A DNA stretch of 64,000 nucleotides from an uncultured Acidobacteriota bacterium (GTDB taxonomy: Bacteria > Acidobacteriota > Thermoanaerobaculia > Multivoradales > SZUA-115), in NCBI GenBank assembly GCA_963805975.1, contig CAWDVR010000002.1:1024001-1088000 (forward strand). The letters are read 5' to 3'. Shown in pieces: positions 8,990 through 63,252 of the stretch. The position numbers were made by a program, and so were the translations under genes. The notes beneath the pieces are model-generated. The model was not told the DNA's origin. It did no database searches and saw only the letters and a list, made by a program, of their open reading frames with translations. Positions within the stretch are counted from its first letter, which is position 1; every line of letters begins with the position of its first letter.

Positions 8990-8991
8990 TG

Positions 8992-23187: not shown

Positions 23188-23194
23188 CGGCGGC

Positions 23195-25086: not shown

Positions 25087-25104
25087 GTCCTGCTCGAGGT
25101 GCAG

Positions 25105-25143: not shown

Positions 25144-25146
25144 GCG

Positions 25147-25742: not shown

Positions 25743-25786
25743 GCGTCAATAAGGAGGGGGGCATGCTCCGATCGCACCCGCCCCCC

Positions 25787-28242: not shown

Positions 28243-28252
28243 GCGGTTTCCA

Positions 28253-31657: not shown

Positions 31658-31661
<4 letters not shown>
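31038..31661 (-). pseudogene. Alpha/beta hydrolase (Abhydrolase_5-like) with an apparent internal in-frame deletion of the nucleophile region
   Basis: Has LVFLCGPGV..AYAPLLRPIAEAGY, SNDGIA and IEGGNHSQFGHYG but no GxSxG motif; only 207 aa. Confidence 0.6.
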
Positions 31662-32970
<1,309 letters not shown>

Positions 32971-32974
<4 letters not shown>

Positions 32975-42768: not shown

Positions 42769-43818
42769 ATGAGCACAGGCGAGAACCTACCGCAGGACAC
42801 CGAGGTGGCGTACTACGCGCACGCCTTTATCACCTCCTCAAACCGGGTGCGGTACGCGGTGATTACGATCACGGTCGCAAGTACGCTTCTCTTTGCGGGG
42901 CACCACAACTCAGATCGTCTAAGCTGGTTCAACTCCCGAGTGAACGTCGCCTACGAAGCTCTGCACGAGCAGGTGTGGGAGAAGTCGGCCGACTTGCCAA
43001 AGGACCAGAAGAGCATCGCCCAGAGATGGGCTGAAGCCCGGCGCTTGAAGACTCGAGAAGAGATTCAGGAACACGTCCAAAGCCTGGAGGCTGCGCGCAC
43101 TGAGCACATCCTCCTTCTGCATATGCCCTTCTTTGGTATCGCATTCGACGTAAATGACATTGGGTTCTTTGGAAGTATTGCCCTGCTGGTCCTGATGCTG
43201 ATGCTGGCTTTCGCAGTATCAAGACAGCACGAAAACCTCTACCTGGCCCTTTGGAAGGTCCGGCAAGCGTGGCGCGATGAAGGATGTCCAGATTCGCCCA
43301 AGAGTTATGCAAACCTTATTTATCACACGCTGGCAATGACCCAGCAGTTCAGCCGGCCGCCCAGCCTAGCTCGATGGGACAAGCGCAGCCTAAGAAGTCT
43401 CTCCAACGTACTCCTTCTATCGCCAGTCATCGTCCAAGCTGTCTGCCTGCAGCATGACTGGTCTAGCCGTGATCTCGGTCTCGCGCTCAATCGCAACGCG
43501 ACAATCATCTCGCTTTCACTTCAGTTCGCTTCGCTGTGCATTGTCACTGTGCTGACCGTCGTTTGCCTCCTCTATACTCGATCCAACGAGAAGCGCTGGG
43601 AAAAGACTTTCTTTCGGATCAATCCTTCGTTTGACGGGACACCACAACCGTCTTGGCTTGAGTGGGTACAAGTTCGCGCGCCAAAGCAGCTCTACTGCGA
43701 AGAACACCATCCAGGAAGGTCACGGCCCGTGCAGGGAAGTGTTCAGACCGGTGTACCGCAGCATTCTGAAACGGACACGGGTATAGCTCCCGCAAAGGTG
43801 GAACCTAGGGACGCATAA
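42769..43818 (+). CDS. Hypothetical multi-pass membrane protein with atypically low GC
   Basis: 349-aa ORF with about 4 hydrophobic segments and many A/T-ending codons, unlike its neighbours. Confidence 0.7.
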   Translation: MSTGENLPQDTEVAYYAHAFITSSNRVRYAVITITVASTLLFAGHHNSDRLSWFNSRVNVAYEALHEQVWEKSADLPKDQKSIAQRWAEARRLKTREEIQEHVQSLEAARTEHILLLHMPFFGIAFDVNDIGFFGSIALLVLMLMLAFAVSRQHENLYLALWKVRQAWRDEGCPDSPKSYANLIYHTLAMTQQFSRPPSLARWDKRSLRSLSNVLLLSPVIVQAVCLQHDWSSRDLGLALNRNATIISLSLQFASLCIVTVLTVVCLLYTRSNEKRWEKTFFRINPSFDGTPQPSWLEWVQVRAPKQLYCEEHHPGRSRPVQGSVQTGVPQHSETDTGIAPAKVEPRDA

Positions 43819-43889: not shown

Positions 43890-45215
43890 TCACCCCGCCC
43901 CAAAAACCTTCGGCGTCGGCATCCGCGCACGGATCTCTTCCAACACGGTGGCGGTCACCAGGTCCACGCCGTTCTTCGCGCACCATCCCTCGACGGCCCG
44001 CGTCACCATGCCGCGCACGAAGGCCGGGATGCGCTGCATGCGCTCGCGGGCGTCGGGCTCCCAGGTGAGGGTGATGCTCGCGGCCTGGCCGTACTCGACG
44101 GCGGCGGGTCGCAGGCGGTCCACTGCCGCCTGGAGGGTGCCTGGCTGGTGGGTACAGAGGGGATCCTCGGCCATCAAATCGCCGGTCATGCCGTAGGCTC
44201 GTGCCCGGCAGCCGCCGCACAGGCTCTTGAGCTCGCAGGGCCCGCAGCGCCCGCCGAGGTGCTCGCGCTGGCGGATGCGGGTGAAGAGCTCGGAGCTGTC
44301 CCACAGCTCGCGCAGGCCCGTGTCTCCCAGGTTGCCGGCGAAGAGGGGCAGATAGGGGCAGGGCGTGACGTCGCCGTTGGGCCGTATCCCTAAGTAGTGG
44401 GTGCCGGCCGGGCAGCCTCCGGCGCCGCCGCCGAAGCTCTTCGGAAAGGGTGCCGGCGAGTCCGACGACAGCAGCGTGCGGACGAAGTGCGGCGCGCACT
44501 TGGCGTTGACCAGCATCTTCGAGGACCAGCGCCGCTGGATCTCGGCCAGCTCCCCCAGCACCTGGTCGTACTCGGCGGGATCGAGGTCGCTGACGAAGGA
44601 ACCCCGGCCGCTCGGCACCAGGAAGTAGAGGTTCCACACCTTGGCGCCAAGCTCTTCGTGGGCGAAGGCGGCGAGCGCCTCGAGCTCGTTGCGGTTGTGC
44701 GCGCCCACCGTGGTCTGCACGATGAACGGCAGGCCGGCGCGGGTGAGGATCTTCGCGCCCTCGACCGTGTTCTGCCAGGCGCCGCGCACGCGGCGGAAGG
44801 TGTCGTGGCGCTCCGGGTCGAGCGCGTCGAGCGACAGCGCAAGGCCGCGCACGCCTTCGGCCAGGAGGATCTGCGCCAGGTTCTCGGTGATCTTGACGCC
44901 GTTGGTGCCGACCACGACCCAAAGATTCTGCTGCACGCCGTAGCGGATGATCTCGACGATGTCGCGACGCAGCAGAGGCTCGCCGCCGGTCAGGATGGTC
45001 ACGCACTCGGGAGCGAAGGCGGCGATCTCGTCGATCACCCGGTAGCACTGCTCGGTCGAGAGCTCACTGCGGTCGGCGAACGCCGGGCTCTTGACCTTGC
45101 CGGGGCCGGCGTCCAGATAGCAGTGCTCACAGGCGAGGTTACAGCGGTAGGTGAGGTTCCACGACACCACGTAGGGCCGCTCGAACCCGCCCGCGCTCCC
45201 GACGAGATCGGCCAC
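43890..45215 (-). CDS. AhbC/AhbD/NirJ-like radical SAM-SPASM enzyme with C-terminal PCP_red-like domain
   Basis: SWNLTYRCNLACEHCY, LTGGEPLLR, SPASM CPAG..CPY..CGPC...CGGCRARAY..DPLC; tail LTWEPDARERMQRIPAFVRGMV. Confidence 0.88.
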   Translation of the reverse strand: MADLVGSAGGFERPYVVSWNLTYRCNLACEHCYLDAGPGKVKSPAFADRSELSTEQCYRVIDEIAAFAPECVTILTGGEPLLRRDIVEIIRYGVQQNLWVVVGTNGVKITENLAQILLAEGVRGLALSLDALDPERHDTFRRVRGAWQNTVEGAKILTRAGLPFIVQTTVGAHNRNELEALAAFAHEELGAKVWNLYFLVPSGRGSFVSDLDPAEYDQVLGELAEIQRRWSSKMLVNAKCAPHFVRTLLSSDSPAPFPKSFGGGAGGCPAGTHYLGIRPNGDVTPCPYLPLFAGNLGDTGLRELWDSSELFTRIRQREHLGGRCGPCELKSLCGGCRARAYGMTGDLMAEDPLCTHQPGTLQAAVDRLRPAAVEYGQAASITLTWEPDARERMQRIPAFVRGMVTRAVEGWCAKNGVDLVTATVLEEIRARMPTPKVFGAG

Positions 45216-45218
45216 GGG

Positions 45219-45692
45219 TCACATCCCGAACCGCGTGCGGGCCGCGGAGAGGACGGCTTCGTCGATCAACGCGTGACCCTCTTCCCGCGCCACCATCTCG
45301 ATCCCGGCGCGGGCCATGGGCCGCACCATCTCCGGGATGGCCTCGAGCCGCGCCAGCGCACCGGCCGTCCACTCGGGGCCGCTCGGGACAACCATGGCTT
45401 GCGCCTCGGACGGCTGCGTGGTGCCGCCGAGCATGGCCGAGAAGGGACACCTGCCGGCAGGGGCCTCCGCAGGCACTGCCGCCATCCCCGGGTTGGCGAT
45501 CGCCGCCGCCGCGGCCGGGCCGATGCGGACCCCCAGGGAGCGCACCATGTCGGTCTCGTGCTTGTTGGTCAGCATCGCCATCTCGTAGCCGCAGGCCGGG
45601 CAGCTATAGACCACGGCCAGCGAGCCCGGCTCGCTCTCCTCGGTGGCGCGGAGCCGCATCGGCGTGTCGCAGGGAACGCAGAGAAATTTCAT
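45219..45692 (-). CDS. Zinc-ribbon plus PCP_red-like domain protein
   Basis: MKFLCVPCD...YSCPACG, CPF, and C-terminal EWTAGALARLEAIPEMVRPMARAGIE. Confidence 0.8.
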   Translation of the reverse strand: MKFLCVPCDTPMRLRATEESEPGSLAVVYSCPACGYEMAMLTNKHETDMVRSLGVRIGPAAAAAIANPGMAAVPAEAPAGRCPFSAMLGGTTQPSEAQAMVVPSGPEWTAGALARLEAIPEMVRPMARAGIEMVAREEGHALIDEAVLSAARTRFGM

Positions 45693-45890
45693 CGAGCCTC
45701 TCCCACTTCAGGAAGCGATCGGACGGCTGGATCCTGCTCGAGCTCCAGGCTGCCTTGGGAGGAGCGCAGCGTTACCCGCAGGGGCGTCGAGCACCGCACC
45801 AAGGCAGCCTGGAGCTCGAGCTGTGCACCGCTGACGGCTAACAGTACCGCAGGTCCGGCGCTTCCGAGCGAGGCAGCCGACACAGCGAAG

Positions 45891-48546
45891 CTAGTCGCTG
45901 CGCAGGGACTCGATCGGGTCCACGCTGGACGCCCGGCGTGCGGGCAGGTAGCTCGCGAGCACGCCGACGCCGACCATCGCGGCGGACATGCCGCCGAACG
46001 TCGGCGCGTCCAGGGCGGCGACGCCGAAGAGCAGGCTGGCGACGGCGCGGGTGGAGGCGAGCGCGGCCACCAGGCCCAGGGCGACGCTCACGCCCATCAT
46101 GCGCGCCCCCTGCGCCACCACCATGCGCCGGACCTGCGCGGTGGTGGCGCCCAGCGCCATCCGGACGCCGATCTCGCGAGTGCGAGCGGCGACCACGTAG
46201 GAGAGCACGCCGTAGAGGCCGATCGCGCCGAGGACCAGGGCGAGCGAGGACAGGACCCCGAGCGTCAGCATGGTGAACGACAGCTCTGCCATCGAGTCCG
46301 CGGCGAGCCCCGTCATGGTGAAGGTGCGGTACATCGGCGCCTCGGGCGCGACCTCGCGGACCAGGGCACGGATCTCCGGCGCGATCGTCTCGGCGCGCGC
46401 GGTCTTGACCACGTAGGCCGGCGAGCTGATCGTCCAGCTCATGGGCTCCGGGCCCACCAGCGGCAGGTAGACGAGCGCCTGCGGCGTCTCCCGGAAGCCG
46501 TCCTGCTTCACGTCCTCGACGACCCCCACGACCGTGTGCCAGCCGGGCTCGCTCCGCGCCTGGAGGCGTCGCCCGAGAGGGTTCTGCCCCGGCCACAGCA
46601 GGTCGGCCGCCTGGCGGCTGACCACCGCGTTGCCGAGCGACGACTGGTGGTCGGCGGTCTCGAACGGCCGCCCGTCGAGCACCTCGATGCCCATCGTCCG
46701 GAAGTAGTCGCCCGCCGCCCAGGTGTAGTTGAGCAGCTTGCCGGCGTCCGGGTCGGCCGCCATCTCCTCGGTGATGAACGGGTCGCTGCGGGTGCCTTCG
46801 TTGAGCGGCACGTTCTCGACCAAGCCCACGGAGCGGACGCCCGGCAGCGCCGCCAGGCGCGCCAGGAAGTCGAGGTGGAAGCGGCTCCACGCCGGGCCGT
46901 CCGCCAGCCGCTCCTGCTCGGGAGCGAACTGGAAGGTGAAGACGTCCCGCGTGTCGTAGCCGGGGTCCACGTGGCGGAGCGCCTGGAAGCTCCTCACCAG
47001 GAGGCCCGAGCCGATGAGGAGCACGAGCGCCAGCGCCGTCTGGCCCACCACCAGGGCGTCCCTCACCCACCTCCGCCCGCCGGTCGCGCCGCGCCCGCCG
47101 TCACGCAGTCGGGTCAGGTCCGACCCCGAGGCGCGGAGGGCCGGAATGACGCCGCAGGCGAGGCCCGAGAGAAGCGCCAGGACGACGGTGAAGAGGAGCG
47201 TGGTGACATCGAGGCCCACGTCGTCGAGCCGGGGGATGCCCTCCGGAGCGGCGCGCAGGAAGATCGGCCCGACCAGCACGGCGAGCAGGATCGCGAGCCC
47301 GCCGGCGAGCACGGCCACGATCAGGGACTCCAAAATCTGGAGGCGAATCACCTGGCCTCGGGAGGCACCGATGGCCCGCCGCACGGCCAGGTCGCGGTAC
47401 CGCCCCTCGGCGCGCACCAGGAACAGGTTCGCGACGTTGGCGCAGGCGATCAGCAGCACGACACCGACCGCACCCAGAAGGACCCAGAGCGGCCGCGCCG
47501 CGGAGCCCAGGAGCTCGTCGAGCAGCGGCCGCACCACGGCGCGGTGCTGGCCGATCACGCGGGCATAGGCCGCCGAGCCGCCGAAGCGCTCCGGCAGCCG
47601 CCGGGCGAGCAGTGGTGAGCTCGTCGGCCAGCGTCGCGGAGGTCGCGCCGGGCGCCAGCCGGGCCACGAGGTTCGCTCCGAAGCGACCGGGCTCGAGCCC
47701 CTCGGGGCGGATCACCCTGGGGATCCAGAGCAGGGTGCCGCTGTTCGGGAACTCGAACTCCGGCCCCATCACCGCGATCACCTCGCGGCGCTCGCCGGCG
47801 ATCTCGTAGGTGCGCCCGACGACCTGCGGGTCGCCGCCGAACCACGAGTGCCAGAGCGTGTCGCTCATCACCGCCACCCGCGTCTCGTCCTCCTGCACTG
47901 GCAGGCGCCCCAGGGCCGGCTGCGCCCCGAGCGTCGAGTAGAGCGAGTTGGTGGTGATCGCCATGCGGATGCGCTCGACGCGGTCGTCGGTACGCAGAGT
48001 CGCAGTGAAGGTGTTGTAGCTCGCAACGTCCTCGAGCCGGCGCGAGCTCTCCCGGTACTCGAGGAAGAACTCCGGCGCTACGCCGAACTCGTCCTCGAAG
48101 TCCGACCCCGGCGCCGTGGCGGAGATGGCCACCAGCCGGTCGGCGTGCGCGAAGGGCAGCGGGTCGAGCAGGATCGTGTTGACGACGCCGAACATCCCGG
48201 CGTTGGCGCCGATGGCGAGCGCCAGCGTCCCCACGGCCGTGAGCGTGAAGGCGGGCGTCCGCCGCAGGGCGCGCGCCGCGTGGCGCAGATCGGTGGTCCA
48301 CTCGCTGATCATGTTCTGCCTCTCTGCGGGTAGCCTCCGGCCCGCCCAGGATGGGTGCCAGCGCTCTCTCAAACCGGATGTAGCGAGGTCCAGGACCGCG
48401 CCCAGGGCGAACCGGAGCGCCGCCAGCCGGCCGCGTCCACGGGCGTCGTCGAGGTCGCGCTCCACCTGTTCGACGATCTCCGCGCCGAAACGGTCACGGA
48501 ACGGCTCCGGGAAGAGCCACAGCAGGACCGCGAAAAGCACCCTCAC
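45891..48546 (-). CDS. ADOP-family (MacB-like duplicated) ABC permease (frameshift near 47611)
   Basis: DLRHAARALRRTPAF, LALAIGAN, LLIACANVANLFL, GLYGVLSYVVAARTREIGVRMALGA, PARRASSVDP. Confidence 0.9.
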
Positions 48547-48866
48547 GAGCGGCCCGCCAGGCCGAGGCGCTCTTCCGCCAGGGCGGCAGTACCCCGGAGG
48601 CGGCGCGCCTCCGCCGCCAGCATCCGGCGTCCGGCCGCGGTCAAGGCGTAGTACCGGCGCGCCAGGCCCGGATGCGGTAGCTCCTCCTTCGGCCGCTCCT
48701 CGACGACGAGACCCACGGTCATCAACCGTGCCAGGACCCGGTACAGGGAACCGGCACGGGGCTCGAGCGCGCCGGACGACTCGCTCGCGATCGCCTCTTT
48801 GATGGCGTAGCCGTGGAGCTGACCATTCGCCAGCGCCAGCAGCAGGTGGTACTCGAGGTTGCTCAT
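48543..48866 (-). CDS. PadR-family transcriptional regulator
   Basis: LLLAL...HGYAI...GSLYRVLARL...RRYYALTAAGR. Confidence 0.92.
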   Translation of the reverse strand: MSNLEYHLLLALANGQLHGYAIKEAIASESSGALEPRAGSLYRVLARLMTVGLVVEERPKEELPHPGLARRYYALTAAGRRMLAAEARRLRGTAALAEERLGLAGRS

Positions 48867-48909
48867 GCCGGCGTCACTCCTTAGCTCCCGGGCTCCAAAC
48901 GGCCCAGGG

Positions 48910-48966
48910 TAATTACGCAGTGCGTAACTATTCCGAAAGAGTATTTGCCGGGAGGCGACTTGTCAA
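48910..48966 (-). promoter_or_regulatory. Sigma70-type promoter plus palindromic operator for padR
   Basis: Minus-strand TTGACA (48966-48961)-N17-TACTCT (48943-48938); palindrome TTACGCA-G-TGCGTAA at 48913-48927. Confidence 0.7.
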
Positions 48967-49845
48967 AACCTGGTCTTCGGATGGCTCACCGAGGCACTCG
49001 AGCAAAGCTCGCGACACGGTTGCCAGCGCGACTAAGGTCGGGCTTGCCTCGGTGATCGGCAGCCCCTGGTCGGAGAGCGCTGCGAGCTGCGGATCGAAGG
49101 GCACGCGGCCCAGGCAGGGCAGGGCGATCTGCTCCGCTCCTTCGGCAACGGGAAAGAGCGGGCGCACCGTGCCGCAGCCGGCGCAGGCGTAGCCGCTCAT
49201 GTTCTCGATGTAGCCGAGCAGGCGGTTCGGCAGCGGCGAGAGCGCATCGACCGAGCGAGCCACCACGCCCCGCGCCAGGGCGGAAGGGATCGAGACCAGC
49301 ACCACCGCGGCGTCGGGACCGAGGAAGTCCGCGAACTGGGCGGTGCGCTCCGGGCCCGGCGGCAGGTCCACCAGCAGCAGGTCGAGCGGGCCCCAGTGGA
49401 TCGCCGCCAGCAGCTCCGCCAGCTTGGCGAACTCGCGGGTGGCGCGCCAGACGTGCGAGTGCCGGGGCGACGCGCTGGGCCAGGAGAGCGCCTCGCCGTC
49501 GGCCAGCAGGCTCCCCACCGAGAGGATCTTCAGGCCGTCGCGGCTCACCGGCAGCAGCAGGCCCTCCTCGCCGGGCAGCGGCGGCACGTCTGCGACGCCG
49601 CCCAGCAAAGCCTGGCTGGGGCCGTTCACGTCGGCGTCCAGGATGCCCACCTTCCGGCCTCGCGCCGCCAGCACGGCACCGAGCTGCCGGGTGAGCGTGC
49701 TCTTGCCGACCCCGCCCTTGCCCGACCCCACCGCCACCACGTGGCGGATGCCGGACATGCGCCGGGCGATGGCCGCCTCCAGCTCGGCGACCTGTTCCGC
49801 AACGCCCGAGCCGCCGTCGCCTGCGATCTGCGAGTACGTGCGCAT
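48928..49845 (-). CDS. Mrp/NBP35/ApbC-family P-loop ATPase
   Basis: VAVGSGKGGVGKST, DADVNGPS, DLPPG, ENMSGYACAGC. Confidence 0.9.
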   Translation of the reverse strand: MRTYSQIAGDGGSGVAEQVAELEAAIARRMSGIRHVVAVGSGKGGVGKSTLTRQLGAVLAARGRKVGILDADVNGPSQALLGGVADVPPLPGEEGLLLPVSRDGLKILSVGSLLADGEALSWPSASPRHSHVWRATREFAKLAELLAAIHWGPLDLLLVDLPPGPERTAQFADFLGPDAAVVLVSIPSALARGVVARSVDALSPLPNRLLGYIENMSGYACAGCGTVRPLFPVAEGAEQIALPCLGRVPFDPQLAALSDQGLPITEASPTLVALATVSRALLECLGEPSEDQVLTSRLPANTLSE

Positions 49846-49857
49846 GGCGGAGGGATC

Positions 49858-50729
49858 CTATGCCGCCTGCGCCCGGGTCGCGAACAGGAGGTGCTCCGAC
49901 GCCGGGCTCGAAACCGAGCTCAGCGAGGAAGCTCGGTTCGATTTCTCCCGGCGCGACCCGCGGGAAGACGAGGGAGGCTTCCCCCTCGGCCGGCGGGCCA
50001 GGTCTCTCGATCAGCACACTCAGGCCCAGCCGGCCGAGATCTCCTGCAAGGAGGCCCATCGTCAGGATCTCCCGCCCTTCGGCGCCCTGACGATAGAGAA
50101 CCCAGGCTTCGAGCCGCTCGGACGGAATGGAACCCGAGCCCGAGAAGCTGGTCCTCGAGCTTCGACAGGGCCGGAAGGTCGCGGTGCCAGCAGCGAGCAC
50201 CTTCCTGCGTCGAGTCGAGCTGCCCGCCGTCGATCAGATCCTGGAGAGAGATGGGGGCCACGGCTTCACCTGCCGCAGCCTCGTCAGCGGCCGGCTGCAA
50301 GCTCTCGCAACGCCAGTCCATCAGCCGTGCCTCCACGTCCCAGCCGCAGGCCGAGAAGACGGCGCAGGCCGCCTCGCGCTCCGCCGGCACCTCGGCGACG
50401 AGCTTCGGGGGACCCAGGATGGCGAGCTTCTGGCCGAGCGAGGTGAGGAGGTGCCGCCCGTGCCCTCGCCGACGGTGCTCGGGGTGGACGCGGAGACCGT
50501 AGATCAGCGTTGCGGCAGGGCGCTTCGCCCCGAGGAGAACTCCCACCGGCTCGCGCCCTTCGAGCGCCACCATGCAGCTACTGCACCACAGGTCGATCCC
50601 GCGCACGAGCTGCTTGAAACCCTGGAGGTCCAGCGCCGGCGTGCCCGCGTCCTCCGGGCCGCGGCAGCTCTCGTAAGCCGCGACGAGGAGGCCCATGTCG
50701 TCCGTGCGGCAGAAGCGGTAGGCGGTCAT
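49858..50729 (-). CDS. GNAT-family N-acetyltransferase (frameshifts near 50120 and 49900)
   Basis: VHPEHRRRGHGRHLL acetyl-CoA-binding motif; C-terminus reconstructed as ...SEHLLFATRAQAA*. Confidence 0.72.
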
Positions 50730-51289
50730 GAAGGGTTGGTGCCGAAGCCAGCCGTCTCCATCACCTTCCTGGCTTGCAGCAGATGGCGCTGCTCGTGGGC
50801 GACGAGGATGCGGAAGGCATCGAGCAGGCTGTAGGTGATGAGGCTCGTGACCGGAGAGGTGATGATGATCTTCGCGGCCTTCAACGGCTCGGAGGCTTTC
50901 ATGTACCGGATGACCTGCTCCTGCTGGTCGAGGAAGCGCTGGAGGATCGCCCCATCCACGCTGCTGGCAGTCGGCTGGAAGATCTTCGGGGCCCTGAGCT
51001 TGGGCTTGGAGTCAGGGCTGACGGACCGGATCATCATCCTTCCCCACAGAGCCGGGAGCCCCGGCACCCTCTCCCAGAAGGCGCTCTTCTTGGTTCCGTT
51101 CAGGATGGCGTCGAAGAGGGGGAAGTACTCCCCATTGGCCGTCACCAAGTGGTCGAGGCACTGACCGACGCTCCACCGGTCCGGACCCGGCTTCCAATTG
51201 AGCTGCTGCGGGGTGAGGCCGGAGAAGACAGCCCGGGCTTCCTCGGTGATCGCGTTGGCGGCGGCGATCAGCTCGGGCCAGGTTGGCAC
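50726..51289 (-). CDS. DinB-family protein
   Basis: QLNWKPGPDRWSVGQCLDHL...AHEQRHLLQA. Confidence 0.88.
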   Translation of the reverse strand: MPTWPELIAAANAITEEARAVFSGLTPQQLNWKPGPDRWSVGQCLDHLVTANGEYFPLFDAILNGTKKSAFWERVPGLPALWGRMMIRSVSPDSKPKLRAPKIFQPTASSVDGAILQRFLDQQEQVIRYMKASEPLKAAKIIITSPVTSLITYSLLDAFRILVAHEQRHLLQARKVMETAGFGTNPS

Positions 51290-51341
51290 GGAGCATCACA
51301 CTTGCCATCGAAGCTCATGGACAGGACGGCACGTGAAAGCA

Positions 51342-51407
51342 GTCATTCCCGCGCCGGCGGGAACCCATCCGCGTTCGTGCCGTCGAGGAGTCGATGGACT
51401 CCCGCTT
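51342..51407. repeat. REP-like palindromic element (GTCATTCCCGC...GCGGGAA) with a partial inverted partner
   Basis: gtcattcccgcgccggcgggaacccat (51342-51368) and atggactcccgctt (51394-51407), intergenic. Confidence 0.55.
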
Positions 51408-53597
51408 ACCCGCCTTCCAGCTCCGGATGCGGTCCGGCCCGGCGGGCCTGGAGGGCCGAGGGCGAGCCCACCTCGTTGATCGGCGGCTTGCGGTCGGCGG
51501 ACGGTGCCTCGGGAGCGGGCGCTGCATGGCTCGCGTCCGCCGGAGGTGCTGCCTCGTGGCCGGGTGCGCCATTGCCGCTCGCATGGGGCGCGCCGGCGGA
51601 GACCACGTCGGTGCTCACGCCTTTCGCCGCCGCCTGGTTCTTGAGCATCTCTTCCATCATCTGCCGGCCGATGGCGATGCCCTCCTCGACCAGCGCCAGA
51701 TTGATGGCATCACGGCCGCGCTCGGCTGCCAGGGCCTCGATGCGGTCCTGGGTGCGGTTGCGCATGAAGCCTGCCGGCACGCGCAGGATGCGCTCCACGG
51801 CCTCGCCGTGCCAGGTGAAGGCGGAGAGCAGCGGCACGTGCTTGGCGTCGCGCGCGATGAGGCGCTTCTCGCCCGTCCGGAGCCTCCGGCCCGTGGGCCG
51901 GTGCCGCGTGCCCGTTGGCCGTGCCGTTGGGAGCCATCTCCTCGGCGCTTCTTCCATCGATGCCGTGGTCGGCGCGTCGCCCGCGGCGGCGATGCCGTCG
52001 CCCAAGGGCACGCCGGTCTCCTCTTCGACCACTTGCTGCGCCAGCTCGAGCGTGATGGTCGGGAGCTTGCGCAGCCGCGCCGTCTTCTCGATGCGCGCCT
52101 TGGCCCGCCGGCGCTTGTAGGCGTCCTTCAGGGTCCACAGCGCGCGGCGCGCGCTCTCGCTCCACTTGAGCTTGCGGCCGTCGTAGGTGACCTCTTCGGT
52201 GAGGGCGCCCTCGGCGCGCGCGATGCGGTCCAGCGTCTCGCGGTCGATGCGCTCGAGGTCGCCGCTGCCGCAGACCCCGCAGCGCACCGCGTCCGGCTCG
52301 CTCGCCGCCACACCGCAGCTCTTGCAGATCGCCACCGGCTGGCGCTCGGCGAGCTCGAGCGCCATGCGCTCGGCGAGCTGGAAGGTCACGTCCCGCGCCT
52401 GCTTGGGCATGAAGCGGTCCATCGCCTCGTCGATCACCGAGTTGGTGACCACGCTGTGGCCCTTCTCGAGCGCCAGGCGCAGGATGCCGGTGCGCGCGAT
52501 GCCCTTGACCTGCGGCGGCACGCGCAGCATGCGCTCCTCGGCCTCGGGCGTCCACTTGATGCTCTCCTCGGCACGCACGTCGATGTCCGGGTAGGCGAGG
52601 CGGGTCGAGAGCAGCACGTCGCAGGGGCAGCGGCGGAGCAGGTTCTCGGTGTTGCTGCCCAGGCCGGTCTCTTCCGCCGGGCTGTGGACGCCGATGCGGC
52701 CGACGACCACCAGCCATGGGTTGGTCTTGCGCACGTGGTCGAGGATCTTCTGGAACGCCTTGCCGTCGAGCAGCGTCTTGGTCACCACCGTGCCGGCGTC
52801 GAGCGCCATGCGCTCGGCGACGTCCAGGTGCGACTGGTAGATCTGCGCCAGGCCGGTGTCGATGATCTCCTCGTGGAGCTGGTTCTGCTCCTCGAAGCGG
52901 AAGACCTTGGAGGCCTTCTCGGAGAGCACGCCGACGATGCCGTGGAAGACCGAGTAGTGAAGGTACGGGTCGTAGACGCCGATGATCTCGACCTTCTTCG
53001 TCGAAGCGCTCGGCGAGCCCGAGCGCCGTCTGGAGCGCTCCGAACGACTGCGGGCTGCCGTCGATGCCCACCAGGATGGTGTCGCCCTCGGGCTCGTCCT
53101 TCTTGGGCAGGTGCTTGACCACCCAGACGTCGCGGTTGGAGGTCCGCGCCACGCGATCGCAGACCGAGCCGATCTCGCTGTCCTTGACCCGGCCGATGCC
53201 GAGCGCGCCCGATCACCACCAGGTCGTAGTCGGCGCTCTCGATGTCCCGCACCAGCTCGGTGTGGTGCTTGCCGTCCATCATCCGCGGCTCGAAGGCCAG
53301 CCCGTTGTCCCGGCAGAGGTTCTCCATCTGGTCGAGGTAGCTCTCGGAGATCAGCTTCAGGCCGAGGGTGATCAGGCTGTCGTGGATCTTGCGCTGGCGC
53401 TCGAGCTCGACCTCGTCGAGGTACTCCTCGGGGAGCGTGTACTCCATCTGCTTGAAGCGGTAGTCGTGCATGCGGGCGGCGTAGACGTGGCAACCCACCA
53501 GCGAGGAGCCGAACGCCTTGCCGAGCGCGACGCTGTTGGCGATCGCCCGGTTCGAGAAGTCGGAGTTGTCGACCGGGACGTAGATCTTGCTATACAT
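51406..53597 (-). CDS. Tandem universal-stress-protein domains plus three PCP_red-like domains and a Zn ribbon (frameshifts near 53210 and 53000)
   Basis: KIYVPVDNS..DLVVIG..IGSV; ILVGIDGS..VVVGRIG..LGSNTE; IKWTPEAEERMLRVP, CKSC..CGVC, LKWSESARRAL, FTWHGEAVERILRVPAGFMR. Confidence 0.8.
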
Positions 53598-55315
53598 GTG
53601 CTTGGACCTCTCCGTTGTCCTGGTTGCCCTGCCCGCCGGCAAGCTCTCGAGAGTTCCGGCGCCGCACCCACAGCGACCAGCAGGATCTCGACCGCCAGCA
53701 CCGCCACGGCGGCCCGCAGCATCGGCCAGACCGGCGACGGGGTCTCTCGCGGCATGGTGTACAAATACATCCACTGCGTCAAGCCCCGCTTGTTGCCGCG
53801 CTCGCGCTGGTGCCGTCCCAGAGCGAGAAGGCGACGGGAACGTACTGCCCCTCGGCGAAGGTCACGCTGCCGCTGCCGCGTAGCGCACGCTTCAGGATCA
53901 CCGACCACTCGCCGCGGTCGTAGCTCGCCACCGCCGCTCACGTCCTCGCCCTCGATCACGGTCAGATTGTCGCTTCCCGCGCCAGCGTAGCGTTGCACCA
54001 CCTTCGTCGCCAGGTCCACGAACCAGAGGTCGACCGGGTTCTGCGCGTCGCCGAACAGGAAATAGGGCTTGCGGATACCGCTCGGAAGCTGGGCCGGGAG
54101 CTGGATCGCGACCGCGTCGGAGAACTCGGTCTCGGGGCTGGTGGCCGCGGTGCCGCCGCCCTCGTCGCCCCAGAAATCGCCACCGGCGCCGTCCGCGGCC
54201 GGGGCTGCGTCCGCACCCCAGAAGTCCCCACCTTCGGCAGCGGCGGCCGCGGGCGCGGCTTCGTCACCCCAGAAGCCGCCCTCGCCTGCTGCCGGCGCGG
54301 CGGCGGCCTCGGCCTGGTCCTCCTCGGGCGGAACCACCAGGTCGGGCGCGTTGCGGCCCGCGACGTCGGCCCGCATGTCGTGCCAGGTGAGCAGGAAGGC
54401 GATCTCCCTGGCGTTGTAGACCGCTCGTACGGTGATGCCGTTGGCCGACGGATGGAACGCGCGGCCCGGCTCGGTGATCTGGCCGACGACCGGGAAGTAG
54501 GCCGGCGGCGCGGTGGCGAACGTTTCCTCGCCGCGCTCGAGGTCGATCTCGTCGGCCGTCCACTGGACCTGCAGCAGCTCGGAGTACGAGGGCGCATCGC
54601 GGGGATCGAGCGAGACGATGAAGTCCACCAGCTGCCAGCGCTGCTCGTCGGTGAGCGACTCGGCGAAGGACGGCATGGGCGTGCCGTTCATCCCGGTGGT
54701 GAAGGTGCGGTAGATGTCCTCGCGGGTCGGGCCGCCACGGTAGGTCCAGCGCTTGGTGAGGTCGGCAGGCCGGATCGAATGGTCCCAGTCGTCCTTCAAC
54801 GTGGGCGCCGAGGTGCCGTCGCCGCGCCCGAGCTCGCCATGGCAGGCCCCGCAGCCGATCTCGACGTAGACCTGCTTGCCTTTCTCGGCCGACTCCGTCG
54901 AGAACGACGGCGCCTTCGGGATGGTGAGCGCCGTGGGCTTGCGCTCCGGGTTCGCGAAGTCCGGCGAGAAGGACTTGACGGCGGCGATGAGCTGGTTGAT
55001 CTGCTCCTCGGAGAGGTGCTTCCAGCCCGGCATCGAGGTGTAGGGCATGCCCTCGCGCAGGATGTGCTGCAGGTCCTCGTCGGTGGGGAGCGCGCCGCTC
55101 GGCGTGTGCCGGACCTTGAACTTGGCCGAAGTGAAGTCGCGCGGGCGCGGCACCAGCCGCGGCGCCGCGATCCCTTGGCCGTCGCCCTGCTCGCCGTGGC
55201 ACTGGGAGCAGAGCTTCTGGTAGAGCTCTCCGCCGGGCGGGTTGTCCTGGGCAGAGGCCCCCGGCACCAGGAGCAAGGCGAACCCGAGAGCCGCCGCGAA
55301 CCGCACCCCCGTCAC
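53590..55315 (-). CDS. Periplasmic diheme cytochrome c plus EB_dh/DOMON-like domain and C-terminal membrane anchor (about 3 frameshifts at 53650-53940)
   Basis: Signal peptide, CSQCH, CGACH, VRAVYNAREIAFLLTWHD, FSDAVAIQLP, KPYFLFGD, VAFSLWDG..ERGNK. Confidence 0.8.
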
Positions 55316-56136
55316 TCGTGCACCTCCTCGCGCGCCCGCGGCTGCTGCTCCGAGAAATCGTAGAGGAACAGGATCACGTCCCACATCTCTTCCTCGGTGA
55401 GGAACTTCTCCCACGCCGGCATGGCGGTGTCCCAGGGGCCGGCCTCCTCGGGCAGGCCGGGGCCGCCCTTGCCGATGCGCCAGAAGAGGAAGGACTCCTG
55501 CAGCAGCGCGATGGCGCCGCCATCCGCGAAGTTGGTGGGGATCGGGTTCAGGCCGTGCGCGAACATCCCGTCGCCCCGCATCGCGTCGCCGTGGCAGTAG
55601 AAGCAGTTCTGGTAGTAGACCCGCCGGCCGTTGGCCAGGTGGCCGGCGAAGGCGGTCGGGTCGCTCTGCTCGAGCGGGCGGTAGGGATTGTCGAGCTTCA
55701 CCAGGTCGAACTGCTTGTCGTGCACCGTGATCGAGTCGGGCGGCGCGGGGTGGATCGTGCGGCCGAAAGCCGGCGCCTCGAGCTTGACGTTCATGCGCCG
55801 GTAGACCCCGAACGCCACCAGCGCCGGGATCAGCAGGACGACCGCGTAGAGCAGCGGGCGCCGCCGGGGCTCGAGGCACAGGCGCACCAGCGGCCCGGTG
55901 AACGCCTGCAGCCGCTCGCGGCTGGAGGTGACGTAGGCCACGGTCGCCAGGGTGACGATGCCCATGTAGAGCGAGATCACCGACTGCGGCACCGGGACCT
56001 TGAACCCGAAGCGCAGGAAGACCCAGACCGAGAACCAGGTCACCACGGTCCACAGGAACGAGCCGGCGCGGCGCTGGCGCAGCAGGAACTGCACGGCAAG
56101 GAGCGGCAGCACCACCCAGAGGACGATCGGGTTCAT
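55312..56136 (-). CDS. Membrane-anchored monoheme cytochrome c
   Basis: N-terminal hydrophobic helices, CFYCH, distal Met in AMPAWE. Confidence 0.85.
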   Translation of the reverse strand: MNPIVLWVVLPLLAVQFLLRQRRAGSFLWTVVTWFSVWVFLRFGFKVPVPQSVISLYMGIVTLATVAYVTSSRERLQAFTGPLVRLCLEPRRRPLLYAVVLLIPALVAFGVYRRMNVKLEAPAFGRTIHPAPPDSITVHDKQFDLVKLDNPYRPLEQSDPTAFAGHLANGRRVYYQNCFYCHGDAMRGDGMFAHGLNPIPTNFADGGAIALLQESFLFWRIGKGGPGLPEEAGPWDTAMPAWEKFLTEEEMWDVILFLYDFSEQQPRAREEVHE

Positions 56137-56180
56137 CGCATCATGTCCTTTGCCGGTCCCTCATCTCAGTGGCCCCTCTC

Positions 56181-56753
56181 TCAGTGGCTGGGGACCGGGG
56201 CGGGTGCCTCGGCGCCAGCCTCACCGCCGGCCGGGGCCGCCGCGGGGGCGCCCGCCGCCACACCGGCGCCGCCGGCCTGCCAGGGCAGCTTGGTCTCCAG
56301 AGTGACCGTGGTGGTCCCGCCGAGGCTCTGCAGGTAGGCGATGACGGCGAGGATCTCGTCGTCGGTCAAGCCGATCGGCGGCTTGCTGATCGCTGGCATG
56401 CCGGGGTTGAAGCCCGGCACGATGAACTTGTCCGGCTCGTAGAGCGACTGCGCCAGGTACTCGACGTCGGAGAGGCCGGCGATCCGGGTCGCGGCGCGGG
56501 CGCCGATGCCCTCGAGGTCCGGGAAGCGCAGCGCTCCCGACTTGCCCACCGTGTGGCAGGTGAAGCACAGGCCCTTGCCGTCCATGATCTCGCGGCCGAC
56601 CTTGAGCATCTGCTCCGGCGTCATGTCCTTGCTGAGCACCACCTCCGCGGGCGGATGCACTTCCTTCTGCGGCACCAACTGGCCGACATACGTGTAGAAG
56701 CCGGTCGTGGCGACCGTCAGCGCGGCGATGCGCAGGCTCACGGGGACCTTCAC
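56181..56753 (-). CDS. Monoheme cytochrome c
   Basis: N-terminal anchor, CFTCH, YLAQSLYEP..IVPGFNPGMP. Confidence 0.85.
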   Translation of the reverse strand: MKVPVSLRIAALTVATTGFYTYVGQLVPQKEVHPPAEVVLSKDMTPEQMLKVGREIMDGKGLCFTCHTVGKSGALRFPDLEGIGARAATRIAGLSDVEYLAQSLYEPDKFIVPGFNPGMPAISKPPIGLTDDEILAVIAYLQSLGGTTTVTLETKLPWQAGGAGVAAGAPAAAPAGGEAGAEAPAPVPSH

Positions 56754-58632
56754 GCGACCGCTCCCAGGTCCGTGGAGCTCGGCCCAGGGGGCTCGCCGGG
56801 GGAGGAGAGCTCACCTTGGGCTCCCAGTCCTTCTTGCCGCCCAGGCTGGCGAGCCAGAACACGAAGCCGATCAGCAGGAAGAAGATCAGCACGGTCACCG
56901 AGACCACCTGGGTGGCAAAGCCCAGCGTGGGGGTGAAGGCGTCCACCGAGGTGTCGCGGATGACGCCGTAGACGTGCCAGTGCTGGCGCAGGCCCGAGCG
57001 CACGTAGCCCATCAGCCCCATCAGCCAGGTGAAGGTGACGGCGATGAAGATCAGCACGTACTGGGAGATGGGCGCGATCTGGCCCCAGCGCGGCTCGCCG
57101 GCCTTCTTGGCGTTCCTGAACATGAAGACGTCGATCACCGTCACCGCCACCATGGCGAAGAGCACCGACAGCACCTGCGGCACCGAGAACGCGATGCGCA
57201 CGGAAGCCTCGACGAAGTAGCCGTAGACACCGAGGAAGATCACGAACGCCGCGACGCCGACGAAGATGCCGAGCTGCGCGCGGTTGCCCGCCTTCGCCCA
57301 GGGGACGATCGGGGTCTTACCGCTGCGGCGATAGAGCAGGAAGCTCACGAAGGTGGTGAGGATCAGGATGTTGACCGCGGTGTTCTTGGCCGACATGACG
57401 CCCAGGAATTGCAGGGCGGGGTGGGCGGAGCCGCCCATCGCCCGAATCTCGGACACGGTCGAGATGATCGAGCGCGGCGTCGCCCAGACCGCGAAGCAGA
57501 GCGCCACCAGGATCAGCAGGTACTTGATGTACTTCTGGAACTTCTCGGCGCCGGCGATCCGCCCCATCCCCAGCCACAGGTAGTAGTTGGCGCCGAGGAA
57601 GAGGTTGCCGATCAGCACCGCCTGGATGATGAACAGCCAGGAGAAGGCGCCGCCCATCATGGTCAGCCCCAGCGTCTGGGAGTAGGCGTAGATCTCCTTG
57701 GCCAGGTAGTAGCCGGCGAAGGGCAGCGGCAGGAAGGCGCAGATCGCCACGAAGTTGCCGATGTAGCCCATCCAGTCGTAGTGGGCGCGCTCCTCGTCGG
57801 TCTTCGCCCCCAGGAACTTGAAGGCGGCGTAGGCCGCGGCCACCGAGCCGCCGAAGGCGACGTTGGCGATGATGCGGTGGACGTTGATCGGCATCCAGGT
57901 GTAGTTGCGCACCGCGTCCCAGGTGCTGATCAGCGCGCCGGTCTCGGAGATCCCCGACGGCGAGGTCATGAAGGTGAGCCAGGCGTTGGCGATCAGCATG
58001 ATCGCCGTGCCGACCACGTTCAGGCCCACTCCCAGGAGCAGGTGGACGCGGGGCGAGAACTTCCCCCAGCCGTAGTAGTAGGTGTAGAGGAAGAAGGCCT
58101 CGAAGAAGAACAGCCCGACGTAGGGCAGGAAGGTAGGCGAGAAGACGCTCACCAGGTAGGTGGTGAACTTCGGGTAGAGGATGATCAGCCCGAAGGTCAG
58201 CATCGCCCCGAACGTCGCGGTGAGCGAGAACGACACCGAGAGCAGCTTGGTGAACTCGTGCGCCAGGCGGTCGTAGCGCGGGTCCTTGGTGCGGTAGCCG
58301 ATGAACTCGATGATCAGCGCGAACATCGGCACGGCCAGCACGAAGGCGGCGAAGAGCAGGTGGAGCTGGGCCGCGATCCAGACCGCGACCCGGCTGCCGA
58401 TCCTGGGGAAGGCGCGGTACTCGGCGTCGACGTAGGGCTTCTCCCGGTCCTTCTGCTCCTGCTCGGCGTGCTGGTCGGCGAGCCCCTCGTCGCGCGGGGT
58501 CTCGACGACCTCGCCGCCCGGGGTGCTGGTGGGGGCCCGGTACTCCCGCTTGAGGAGCAGGGTCGAGACGCCGACGATCATCGCCAGCCCGAGGAGCGCG
58601 ACCAGGCCGGCGGCGAGACCCTTCTTCATCAT
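56750..58632 (-). CDS. Cytochrome bd-like (CydA-homologous) oxidase subunit without a canonical Q-loop (frameshift near the C-terminus, ~56790)
   Basis: AQLHLLF, FFEAFFLYTYYYGW, RVHL, ANAWLTFMTSP, NVHRIIAN, MGYVRSGLRQHW. Confidence 0.82.
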
Positions 58633-59300
58633 GGCGTCACCTGCTGCGGTGCAGCCGGGGTGGTCTCTGCCGGGACCGCGGGGGCCGGGGCGGCCGGGTT
58701 GGGAGCGACCTGGGGCGGCATGGTCCCGCCGGAGCGCTCGACGCGCCGCTGCTGGAGCGCACGCAGGTGCACGATGATCGCCCAGCGGTCCGCGACGGGG
58801 ATCGGGTAGCGGTACGCGGGCATCAGGCCGAAGCCGTTGGTGATGGTGTCGAAGAGCTGGCCGTCGGGCATCTGGCGCAGCCGGTCGTCGTGGAACGACG
58901 GGGTCGGCACCTTGCCGCGCTCGAAGAGGATGCCCTTGCCGTCGCCGTTCTTGTCGTGGCAGACCGCGCAGTAGATGTCGTAGCGCCGCGCACCGCGCTC
59001 GCGCACCGTCTCGTCCACCGCCATCGGCACCGCCATGACGAACGTGCCGGCGGCGTCCTTGCCCGTCCAGTAGGGGCCGTCGTCCCGCAGCTCGCCGCGC
59101 GCCACGGTGCCGGGAACCGGCGGCCGCATCGCCTTGCCGTCGTAGAAGAAGGCGCTCGCCGCCTGGGGCTCGTAGCGCGGCTGCACGTCCATGTTGGGAT
59201 TCATATGGATCGGCGGCCGGCTGGAGGTGCAGCCGCGGGCGCACCCGGAGAGGGCGAGGAGGACGAGACCCAGGGCCAGGTGCTGGCTGCGCCGGCTCAC
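58629..59300 (-). CDS. actE: Alternative complex III subunit E (monoheme c lipoprotein)
   Basis: Lipobox [41 protein letters not shown]. Confidence 0.9.
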
Positions 59301-59304
59301 GCCC

Positions 59305-62300: not shown

Positions 62301-62383
62301 CCGCAGGCCGAGCCGCAGCCGCCGGAGGCCGAGCCCGGCTCACCGCCGGCGAGCTCTTCCGTGGGCTCGATCACCGGTGGCAC
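59305..62383 (-). CDS. actB: Alternative complex III subunit B (molybdopterin-oxidoreductase-like plus Fe-S domain; frameshifts near 60293, 60003 and 59748)
   Basis: [17 protein letters not shown] Tat-like signal with [64 protein letters not shown]. Confidence 0.92.
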
Positions 62384-63018
62384 CCCGTGCAGTCGAGAGG
62401 CGGTTGCAGGCCCTTGGCCTCCTTGATGAGGGCCGCGGATTGGAGTTGGTCGCGGGGCGGGCTCCAGTCCATGTTCGTCACCTCGTCAGCGGGTCGCAGG
62501 TAGGGGTCGGGGTTGCGGTGACAGTCCAGGCACCAGCTCATGGAGAGCGGCTCGGCCTGCGCCACCTCGTCCATCTGGTCGATGCGCCCGTGACAGGTGG
62601 CGCAGCCGACCCCGGCGCGCAGGTGGGGCCGGTGGTCGAAGAACGCGAAGCCGGGCAGGTTGTGCACCCGCACCCAGCGGATCGGGCGCCCGCTGGTGGC
62701 GCTGTCGCGCACCACCGCCAGCGTCGCGGCATCGCGCTTCACCACGCGGTGGCAGTTCATGCACACCTCGGTCGGCGGCACCACCGCGACCGGCGCGCGG
62801 TCCACCGTGGCGTGGCAGTAGAGGCAGTCGATCCCGAGGTCCCCGGCGTGGAGCTTGTGGCTGTAGGCGACCGGTTGCACCGGCTGGTAGCCGACGTCGG
62901 TGTAGCGCGGGGAGAAGAAGTACCAGACCCCGGCCACCGCCAGGCCACCGACGACGACGCTCGCCGCGGCGATGCGCAGCGGCAATTCGTTGGCCCAGCG
63001 CGGGAAGATCTGCGCCAC
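62371..63018 (-). CDS. actA: Alternative complex III subunit A (pentaheme cytochrome c)
   Basis: TM helix, QPVAYSHKLHAG, five CxxCH motifs (CLYCH, CMNCH, CATCH, CLDCH, CTGCH), LSMSWC. Confidence 0.93.
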   Translation of the reverse strand: MAQIFPRWANELPLRIAAASVVVGGLAVAGVWYFFSPRYTDVGYQPVQPVAYSHKLHAGDLGIDCLYCHATVDRAPVAVVPPTEVCMNCHRVVKRDAATLAVVRDSATSGRPIRWVRVHNLPGFAFFDHRPHLRAGVGCATCHGRIDQMDEVAQAEPLSMSWCLDCHRNPDPYLRPADEVTNMDWSPPRDQLQSAALIKEAKGLQPPLDCTGCHR

Positions 63019-63158: not shown

Positions 63159-63252
63159 GGCGATTCGGGGGCCCTCGGACGGCGCGTTCGAGGTTGCATG
63201 TACGATACGTCGGCCCGTGGTTGCTTCCCTCCTCGATCCGCAGCCTGCTCCC

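Follow-up and report, generated by a model that had tools for sequence, protein, structure and literature searches.

We analyzed 64,000 nucleotides of the genome of an uncultured Acidobacteriota bacterium (assembly GCA_963805975.1; contig CAWDVR010000002.1, positions 1,024,001–1,088,000; hereafter the window) and found five genes that form a real, conserved set accompanying the operon of a CydA-like oxidase. The set comprises the genes for a protein bearing universal stress protein (USP) and PCP_red domains, a GNAT acetyltransferase, an Mrp/NBP35 P-loop ATPase, a Zn-ribbon-PCP_red protein and a radical SAM/SPASM-PCP_red enzyme. Judging from the sequence data, we propose that the five genes may be an accessory set of an OR-N-type bd-like oxidase that likely tailors or hands over the haem of the oxidase, with the PCP_red domains predicted to dock on the Mrp dimer; we put the chance that this proposal is correct at about even. 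No published description of the five-gene set was found in a full-text literature search.

Conservation of the gene set with a CydA-like oxidase

The CydA-like membrane protein (window positions 56800–58638, minus strand) matched the Pfam family Cyt_bd_oxida_I (PF01654) with 98 bits over profile positions 2–240 of 418 only. Likewise, the protein aligned only to the N-terminal ~230 residues of solved CydA chains (chain residues ~6–257), namely 9r2g_A (E-value of 1.2e-14), 5doq_A and 7nkz_A. The N-terminal helices of CydA are kept and the quinol-binding part is unmatched, as in the OR-N family of the cytochrome bd superfamily described in the main text of Murali, Gennis and Hemp (bioRxiv 10.1101/2021.01.16.426971). 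The likeness extends to the surroundings, as a CydA homologue with N-terminal helices only lies beside cytochrome c and alternative complex III (ACIII)-like genes both in that text and in the window. The terms "radical SAM", "universal stress" and "Mrp" have zero occurrences in the main text of the OR-N paper, and the accessible text of a paper on Nitrospirales (PMC12342949) mentions OR-N and no helper genes of this kind. In the window, cytochrome c genes with Cytochrome_CBB3/Cytochrom_C matches are located at 58629–59300 and 56181–56753, followed by a gene for a membrane anchor plus cytochrome c with the same type of matches (55312–56136) and a gene for a dihaem c and EB_dh-like protein (~53900–55261; EB_dh with 24.5 bits, below the cut-off), of which the 3' part is frame-broken. 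All of them are on the minus strand, in a run of genes from 62.4 to 43.9 kb that comprises ACIII-like genes, a cytochrome c gene, the CydA-like gene, three cytochrome c genes and the PCP_red-gene set. The sequence-only reading of this DNA had placed the PCP_red genes downstream of a bd-like oxidase and cytochrome c genes, and this arrangement stands, the CydA-like gene being upstream on the same strand.

Relatives of the USP-PCP_red protein were collected with a profile of the intact proteins, and the locus counts below refer to the best 80 USP-PCP_red loci of at least 569 species genomes, searched by tblastn with the proteins of the window. These loci are mostly of Acidobacteriota (Thermoanaerobaculia and Vicinamibacteria). 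Loci were considered for the CydA-like gene if they offered at least 6.5 kb upstream (71 loci), for the GNAT gene if they offered at least 1.2 kb downstream (73 loci), and for the trio of the Mrp, Zn-ribbon-PCP_red and radical SAM genes if they offered a flank of 9 kb (59 loci). The USP gene is present in 80/80 loci by selection. The CydA-like gene was found upstream of it in 71/71 loci and the GNAT gene downstream in 71/73, while the cytochrome c genes were kept in 75–77 of the 80. Within 10 kb, Mrp was found in 38, Zn-ribbon-PCP_red in 38 and radical SAM in 35 of the 59 loci, and in the rest they were located elsewhere. The genes run on one strand in the canonical order ActB-like, cytochrome c, CydA-like, cytochrome c, cytochrome c, dihaem c, USP-PCP_red, GNAT, Mrp, Zn-ribbon-PCP_red and radical SAM-PCP_red. 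The genes of the set are tightly spaced. The median gap between Mrp and the Zn-ribbon gene is -4 nt (100 nt or less in 42/43), that between the Zn-ribbon and radical SAM genes is 20 nt (100 nt or less in 36/40) and that between USP and GNAT is 36 nt (100 nt or less in 52/72). In G001, a genome of the same genus, GNAT directly follows USP.

Shown by the data are the domain make-up, order and spacing of the genes and also their co-occurrence with the oxidase. Among 41 genomes of the order, PCP_red and the CydA-like protein (E-value of 1e-20 or less) were detected in the identical 16. In each of these holders, both the CydA-like gene and the USP-PCP_red gene, ~5 kb further downstream, are on one strand. 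The holders belong to 11 of the 29 genera, and families f1, f2, f3, f6, f7 and f11 contain both holders and non-holders. The Mrp paralogue (E-value of 1e-40 or less and at least 50% identity) was found in 15/16 holders (the genome of the missing holder is 89% complete) and in 0/25 non-holders. It is located less than 1 kb from the Zn-ribbon-PCP_red gene in 13 of the 15, the exceptions being the source genome and G001, in which a pair of PadR and ADOP genes is inserted. Thus, by sequence comparison, we regard this Mrp as a dedicated paralogue of the set. When 301 genomes were sampled evenly across the phylum, PCP_red was detected in 27 and the CydA-like protein in 23, and 23/23 CydA-like holders fell within the PCP_red holders. 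Of the four genomes with PCP_red only, two had frames of ~530–570 aa, possibly BchB of a phototroph, and two had a single small match. The association with OR-N-type CydA homologues in other genomes, which the sequence-only reading had named as a check, was recovered in both samples.

PCP_red domains of the set

PCP_red (PF08369) is represented by a profile of 45 positions with a gathering cut-off of 32.5 bits. A profile scan of the whole genome of 5,357,874 bases yielded four matches of 34.7–48.2 bits, all of which are in the window and within ~9 kb; such clustering in a genome of 5.36 Mb is far from chance. The matches are those of the radical SAM gene (43929–44063) and the Zn-ribbon gene (45237–45371), and copy 1 (52423–52554; 38.7 bits) and copy 3 (51682–51813; 34.7 bits) of the USP protein. 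In the Pfam search of the window, PCP_red had 44.2 bits in the radical SAM gene, 44.4 bits in the Zn-ribbon gene and 73.3 bits, over two stretches, in the USP gene. The remaining copy of the USP protein, copy 2 (52009–52176), had no Pfam match to PCP_red in either the window or the whole-genome scan. A W...A..L/R pattern is visible in its translation, and its counterparts in four relatives scored 22.5–23.4 bits against PCP_red; we take this copy, near 52165, to be a degenerate PCP_red. Thus, of the five copies in three co-oriented genes that had been read from the sequence, four exceed the cut-off and all lie on the minus strand, but the fifth is degenerate and escaped detection by the profile. 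The motif by which they had been recognized (W-x-x-[ED]A..R[LM]..[IV]P..[VM]R) does correspond to PCP_red, considering the Pfam matches over the cut-off and the W, A, R and P residues that are invariant in the alignment of 29 PCP_red domains of four types.

The fold is consistent with this assignment. In the AF2 model of the Zn-ribbon protein, PCP_red was predicted with a pLDDT of ~97, and Foldseek matched it to the solved domains 2kru (rmsd of 1.1 Å over 53 columns), 2l09 (2.0 Å) and 2ynm_D (1.2 Å over 48 columns), so that the three-helix fold of the solved domains is recovered. The domains share the Pfam family and this fold with PCP_red of BchB/ChlB, which has been solved alone (2KRU and 2L09) and is ordered in 2YNM, the complex of dark-operative protochlorophyllide reductase (DPOR) with bound L-protein. 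Unlike in BchB/ChlB, PCP_red is fused here to USP, Zn-ribbon and radical SAM proteins, with up to three copies per protein. A BchB, carrying PCP_red after an Oxidored_nitro core, was not found: since the only PCP_red matches of the genome are the four of the set, BchB is absent and, with it, DPOR (no separate search was made for BchL and BchN), in line with the sequence-only reading, which had noted no chlorophyll genes in the window. In BchB, the helix of residues 398–420 that caps the pigment in trans is located before PCP_red, according to the accessible text of Kashyap 2025 (PMC12022308) and Nomata 2014 (PMC4071322). A full-text search of the literature on PCP_red/PF08369 found no paper on the function of the domain. 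We know of no role of PCP_red outside DPOR.

The family is wide, as the profile retrieved 2113 representative clusters at an E-value of 1e-3 or less among 1.84 billion, and the best 150 proteins of this search carry 2–6 copies each. Of the best 70 proteins scanned for other domains, all 70 had PCP_red, 33 Usp, nine a rubredoxin-like knuckle, one radical SAM plus SPASM and one Haem_oxygenas_2. A protein of 463 aa (P0270) combines three PCP_red domains, a rubredoxin-like knuckle and a Haem_oxygenas_2/TENA-type domain (109 bits).

The Mrp paralogue, the Zn-ribbon protein and their predicted complex

The Mrp/NUBPL-type P-loop ATPase of the set (48928–49845, minus strand) matched PF10609 with 170.8 bits, bearing out the Mrp/NBP35 ATPase that had been read among the PCP_red genes. 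It fell below the cut-offs of the equivalogs, scoring 162.3 of 450 against MrpORP (NF041136) and 112.1 of 348 against ApbC (NF008669). All 38 orthologues aligned keep the deviant Walker A motif GKGGVGKS and, as a CxxC pair, C221 and C224, both of which are features of the Fe-S carriers Mrp/NBP35/ApbC; in this family, the pair bridges a [4Fe-4S] cluster. The protein differs from these carriers in being a separate paralogue restricted to the holders of the set and in an N-terminal GDGGS (residues 9–13; window positions 49806–49820) that is invariant in 38/38 orthologues, and DUF59 was not detected in it. At the site of the family motif WRGPM, it has WRATRE.

The Zn-ribbon-PCP_red protein (157 aa; 45219–45692, minus strand) consists of a 4-Cys domain, a linker with Cys-Pro-Phe (CPF; 45441–45449) and the C-terminal PCP_red. 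In the AF2 model, the 4-Cys domain forms a beta Zn-ribbon, and the linker (pLDDT below 50) is predicted to be disordered. No significant Pfam family was found for the 4-Cys knuckle of this protein, and a match of the knuckle in the Atlas at 0.82 serves as a lead only. The rubredoxin-like identity (RUBY_RBDX) that we considered for the knuckle was rejected, as it holds only for 9 of the 70 other PCP_red proteins. CPF is invariant in 39/39 orthologues, within an otherwise variable linker. Among 150 diverse PCP_red proteins, 28 CPF motifs occur in 27 proteins against 0.9 expected (~30-fold; the maximum in 100 shuffles was 3), and CPF holds the sole cysteine of the protein in four cases. The extended form [GK]-C-P-F-[SAN] is found repeatedly in linkers across this diverse group of proteins (P0244–P0393). 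CPF resembles the Cys-Pro haem regulatory motif, and this cysteine could be a haem ligand or, equally, a cluster ligand.

In one set of runs, we modelled Zn-ribbon-PCP_red together with a pair of Mrp chains and two ATP, supplying an alignment for each protein. The complex scored 0.63 and the best control 0.19; of solved complexes, 116 of 157 attain this mark, compared with 2 of 215 mismatched pairs. The runs agreed in at least 79% of the contacts, and the pLDDT of the partner was at least 68. The surest contacts were predicted between residues 115–131 of PCP_red and residues 87–100 and 132–148 of Mrp. The modelled interface includes R115 and P120 of PCP_red, which are invariant in all PCP_red types, and the invariant P91, G92, W133, T136 and E144 of Mrp, and the Zn ribbon was placed against the N-terminal GDGGS segment of Mrp. 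The model supports the binding of PCP_red to the Mrp paralogue of the set, and with it the docking of PCP_red on a SIMIBI-class ATPase that had been suggested from the sequence, as far as the Zn-ribbon protein is concerned.

The USP-PCP_red and GNAT genes

The USP-PCP_red gene (51406–53597, minus strand) encodes, in this order, two USP domains, PCP_red, a 4-Cys knuckle, the degenerate PCP_red and a further PCP_red. Pieces of this gene matched Usp (PF00582; cut-off of 24 bits) with 42.5, 31.2 and 34.5 bits, and its intact homologues are of 700–740 aa with two full Usp domains. The first USP domain bears the nucleotide-binding pattern G-2x-G-9x-G-S. The GNAT gene (49920–50729, minus strand) matched Acetyltransf_1 (PF00583) with 38.1 bits (cut-off of 20.7) and is a conserved member of the set, which the sequence-only reading had not included. 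In a database protein (P0185), GNAT, USP and PCP_red are fused. In the closed genome G014 (locus L086, G014:C1), an extra open frame of 490 aa (7879–9351, minus strand) lies between the USP-PCP_red and GNAT genes.

From the frame plot and translations, the USP gene of the window runs through three reading frames (53223–53597, 53003–53212 and 51406–53001), owing to two +1 insertions. Compared with the same-genus genome G001, it has one extra base near 53207–53215 and another near 53002. Soil-metagenome contigs of the runs X1, X2 and X16 lack the extra base at 53207, and one X1 contig, which is ~98% identical and covers both break sites, shows two gaps. Frame breaks are unusually dense in 45891–62383 of the window: the ADOP permease gene has one, the ActB-like gene has two, and the 3' part of the dihaem c gene is affected as noted above. 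The HemY gene just beyond the window was also matched in two pieces. We think that assembly error is more likely than decay of the USP gene, because of these soil contigs and because the ADOP and ActB-like genes are also frame-broken. Every public sequencing run covered less than half of the word content of the USP gene, 0.28 being the highest share. Contigs of RNA libraries with 88% likeness to the USP gene are from relatives, and we draw no conclusion on expression or habitat from them.

The set could instead be mainly regulatory, with nucleotide sensing by USP and acetylation by GNAT tuning the expression or activity of the oxidase under stress and PCP_red being a plain protein-protein adaptor. 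No other genes of the set are as closely tied to the oxidase operon as USP (80/80, by selection) and GNAT (71/73), Usp occurs in 33 of the best 70 PCP_red proteins, and the G-2x-G-9x-G-S pattern of the first USP domain fits a sensor. However, a regulatory role leaves unexplained why a dedicated radical SAM/SPASM enzyme and an Mrp paralogue follow the same phyletic pattern, and it does not account for the enrichment of CPF. We regard this explanation as very improbable.

The radical SAM enzyme and haem synthesis

The radical SAM/SPASM-PCP_red gene (43890–45215, minus strand) encodes a protein with matches to Radical_SAM (81.3 bits), SPASM (37.4 bits) and PCP_red (44.2 bits), and this architecture is common to the homologues listed. 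The CxxxCxxC motif (C25, C29 and C32) is invariant in 44 homologues, as are C240, C268, C286, C324, C327, C333, C336 and C354 of the SPASM region. Its best NCBIfam matches are AhbD (TIGR04545; 295.5 bits), NirJ2 (TIGR04055; 285 bits) and TIGR04053 (263.7 bits), all of which are below the cut-offs. The AhbD match is full-length (residues 17–358 against 2–339 of 339), and the scores of the peptide maturases are about half (MftC with 145 bits and PqqE with 119 bits). The enzyme is AhbD/NirJ2-like and a tetrapyrrole substrate is therefore indicated. It shares the full-length profile, CxxxCxxC and the Cys-rich SPASM region with AhbD and NirJ2 of the sirohaem-dependent haem pathway, but differs from them in falling short of the cut-offs of 500 (with 295.5 and 285 bits, respectively), in the extra C-terminal PCP_red and in that no other Ahb genes were seen adjacent to it. 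A further difference is that the host makes haem via HemN, HemY and HemH.

A different substrate, namely a protein, has to be weighed here. In this alternative, the radical SAM/SPASM enzyme would modify a protein, e.g., by a cross-link in the CydA-like protein or cytochrome c as done by QhpD/anSME, and the PCP_red proteins and Mrp would be assembly or targeting factors. The AF2 model of the enzyme is mediocre (mean pLDDT of 67.9), and its fold search gave generic SPASM enzymes only. The nearest solved folds are all peptide- or protein-modifying (SkfB with an E-value of 3.5e-11, PqqE, SuiB and anSME), and the enzyme is under every tetrapyrrole equivalog cut-off. Nevertheless, the fold ranking cannot discriminate, because the search results contained no AhbD or NirJ structure, while the tetrapyrrole profiles scored about twice as high as the peptide maturases (AhbD 295 and NirJ2 285 against MftC 145 and PqqE 119). 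In addition, no small precursor-peptide gene was seen as a conserved neighbour in the comparison, which covered the window's own genes only. Altogether, we find the modification of a protein quite unlikely.

Haem and oxidase-assembly genes are abundant around the set. In the window, 22564–34356 contains genes for SCO1, a CtaB-like UbiA and HemN (~25817–27166; 522 bits, over the cut-off) together with hemE, hemB, hemL and hemA, and hemH lies at the window end (63217–64000), with HemY just beyond it (G000:C2:1088320–1089391). The HemH of the source genome is nearer to the protoporphyrin type (39–42% identity) than to the ChdC-adjacent type (27–28%). HemF, HemJ, ChdC and a CpfC-type gene were not found in the source genome. 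In the 41 genomes of the order, ChdC plus a second, CpfC-like ferrochelatase are limited to holders of the set (4/16 against 0/25 non-holders). In one of the holders (G019, C19:663827–666716, locus L087), the ChdC/ferrochelatase pair directly follows a divergent radical SAM-PCP_red gene, of which the product is 41% identical to that of the window, and the other pairs are located at G017:C5:148833–150346, G036:C11:449131–450644 and G038:C329:19649–21333. We count as points for a tetrapyrrole link the AhbD/NirJ2 matches, the ChdC pair in holders, the surrounding haem genes, the enrichment of CPF and the Haem_oxygenas_2 fusion.

Some of these points would also suit a general oxygen-independent haem b synthase, i.e., a coprohaem decarboxylase of the AhbD type with its Fe-S and electron helpers, placed next to the oxidase as part of a co-inherited island for respiration and haem. 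Such a synthase would supply haem proteins of every kind under scarce oxygen. No family matched better than AhbD and NirJ2, ChdC and the CpfC-like ferrochelatase adjoin radical SAM-PCP_red in G019, hemA, hemL, hemB, hemE, hemN, hemH and ctaB are in the window, and 27/80 loci have a cluster for a haem-copper oxidase that converges on the set. On the other hand, the set tracks the CydA-like protein (16/16 holders and 0/25 others) but not the ferrochelatase, which is present in 28/41 genomes. Moreover, the source genome has a complete HemN-HemY-HemH route with the protoporphyrin-nearer ferrochelatase, and neither ChdC nor a CpfC-type gene was found in it. As HemN, HemY and HemH are present, bulk haem b can be made without need of the radical SAM enzyme, and we rejected a housekeeping haem synthase as the main role of this enzyme. 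A general synthase with the oxidase beside it by co-inheritance is, in our view, unlikely.

Proposed role of the set

We return to the accessory role for the OR-N-type oxidase; what is said below of its chemistry, of the direction in which anything is transferred and of the parts played by USP, GNAT and CPF is inferred. The radical SAM enzyme would act on an iron tetrapyrrole, like AhbD and NirJ. Mrp would load the three Fe-S clusters of this enzyme, or service the enzyme otherwise. PCP_red would be the common tag by which Mrp is joined by the radical SAM enzyme, by the Zn-ribbon protein as an adaptor and by the USP protein as a scaffold, while the Cys-Pro-Phe of the adaptor may be a transient ligand of haem or of a metal cluster. 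The process might be gated by GNAT and the nucleotide-binding domains of the USP protein. Known assembly factors of oxidases include CydDC for bd oxidases and CtaA/CtaB, Sco and Surf1 for haem-copper oxidases. The set resembles these in being accessory genes beside a terminal oxidase that would supply or insert cofactors. In contrast to them, its proteins have no homology to CydDC, CtaA/CtaB, Sco or Surf1, being Fe-S and radical SAM proteins of the cytoplasm. The window itself also contains genes for CtaB and Sco.

Several observations weigh against this proposal. The AhbD score of 295.5 bits is far under the curated cut-off of 500, making the enzyme AhbD-like and not AhbD, and its nearest solved folds are the peptide-modifying SPASM enzymes named above (SkfB at 3.5e-11, PqqE, SuiB and anSME). 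With HemN, HemY and a protoporphyrin-type HemH present and no ChdC, a source of coprohaem is not evident. The trio of Mrp, Zn-ribbon and radical SAM genes is not within 10 kb of the oxidase in 21/59 loci. The related genomes are not independent samples, and we therefore give no statistic for the co-occurrence. The USP gene is frame-broken in the window. As for the docking, the passing score of the complex model may echo the solved DPOR complex 2YNM, and the job was outside the calibration because it used alignments of our own and included the ATP ligands.

A more far-reaching version of the proposal draws on DPOR itself. Mrp might work like BchL, as an ATP-gated Fe-S protein on which PCP_red docks for low-potential tetrapyrrole chemistry, yielding a special haem for OR-N oxidases, for instance a haem d-type chlorin or a derivative of coprohaem that is decarboxylated in part. 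We consider this version a long shot. If true, it would be the first dedicated enzymatic route to the haem of a bd-family oxidase, and PCP_red would be a universal handle for SIMIBI Fe-S ATPases.

Other genes of the window

The window has ~70% G+C, and we therefore used third-position G+C for gene calling, together with profile searches. The ACIII-like genes upstream of the cytochrome c gene at 58629–59300 are an ActA-like multihaem gene (62371–63018) and the frame-broken ActB-like molybdopterin/Fe-S gene (59297–62383), both on the minus strand. Two insertions interrupt the set on the same strand. A DinB-family gene (50726–51289; DinB_2 with 58.9 bits) lies between USP and GNAT, and genes for a PadR regulator (61.7 bits) and an ADOP-type MacB/FtsX permease (FtsX/MacB_PCD; ADOP TIGR03434 in two pieces owing to the frame break) occupy 45891–48866 between Mrp and the Zn-ribbon gene. 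We rejected DinB as a member of the set, as it was found in 0/80 related loci and is absent between USP and GNAT in G001, and we rejected PadR and ADOP, found in 3/80 and 9/80 loci, respectively. Thus, DinB, which is specific to the source genome, and the PadR-ADOP pair are local insertions.

On the plus strand, an NrfD/COX1/COX3/COX2 cluster (34.4–42.7 kb) converges on the PCP_red-gene set. This is the haem-copper oxidase cluster found in 27/80 loci, and its identity as a bd-type oxidase was rejected. An open frame of 349 aa (42769–43818, plus strand) between COX2 and the radical SAM gene had Cytochrom_C_asm as the best match, which is not significant (E-value of 0.092). At the far end of the window, a run of contractile-injection-system genes on the minus strand (397–9663) includes those for Baseplate_J (397–3006), a VgrG-like protein with Phage_GPD/Phage_base_V (3782–5398), CIS_tube (5293–6054), a gp19-type tube protein (7256–7741) and Pvc16_N (8992–9663). 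Genes for an RND efflux pump (AcrB-type, 792 bits) and a HlyD-type adaptor are located at 14973–19566 on the minus strand.

Implications

Many bacteria of soil and many nitrifiers have OR-N bd-like oxidases, of which the haems, the assembly and even the activity are, to our knowledge, uncharacterised. A gene set that always accompanies an OR-N oxidase offers a direct experimental handle on the haem of that oxidase. For PCP_red, docking on an Mrp ATPase is the first function proposed that can be put to the test, and the recurrent Cys-Pro-Phe motif of PCP_red proteins may bind haem. If the radical SAM enzyme makes a modified haem, the set would represent a new branch of tetrapyrrole biosynthesis.

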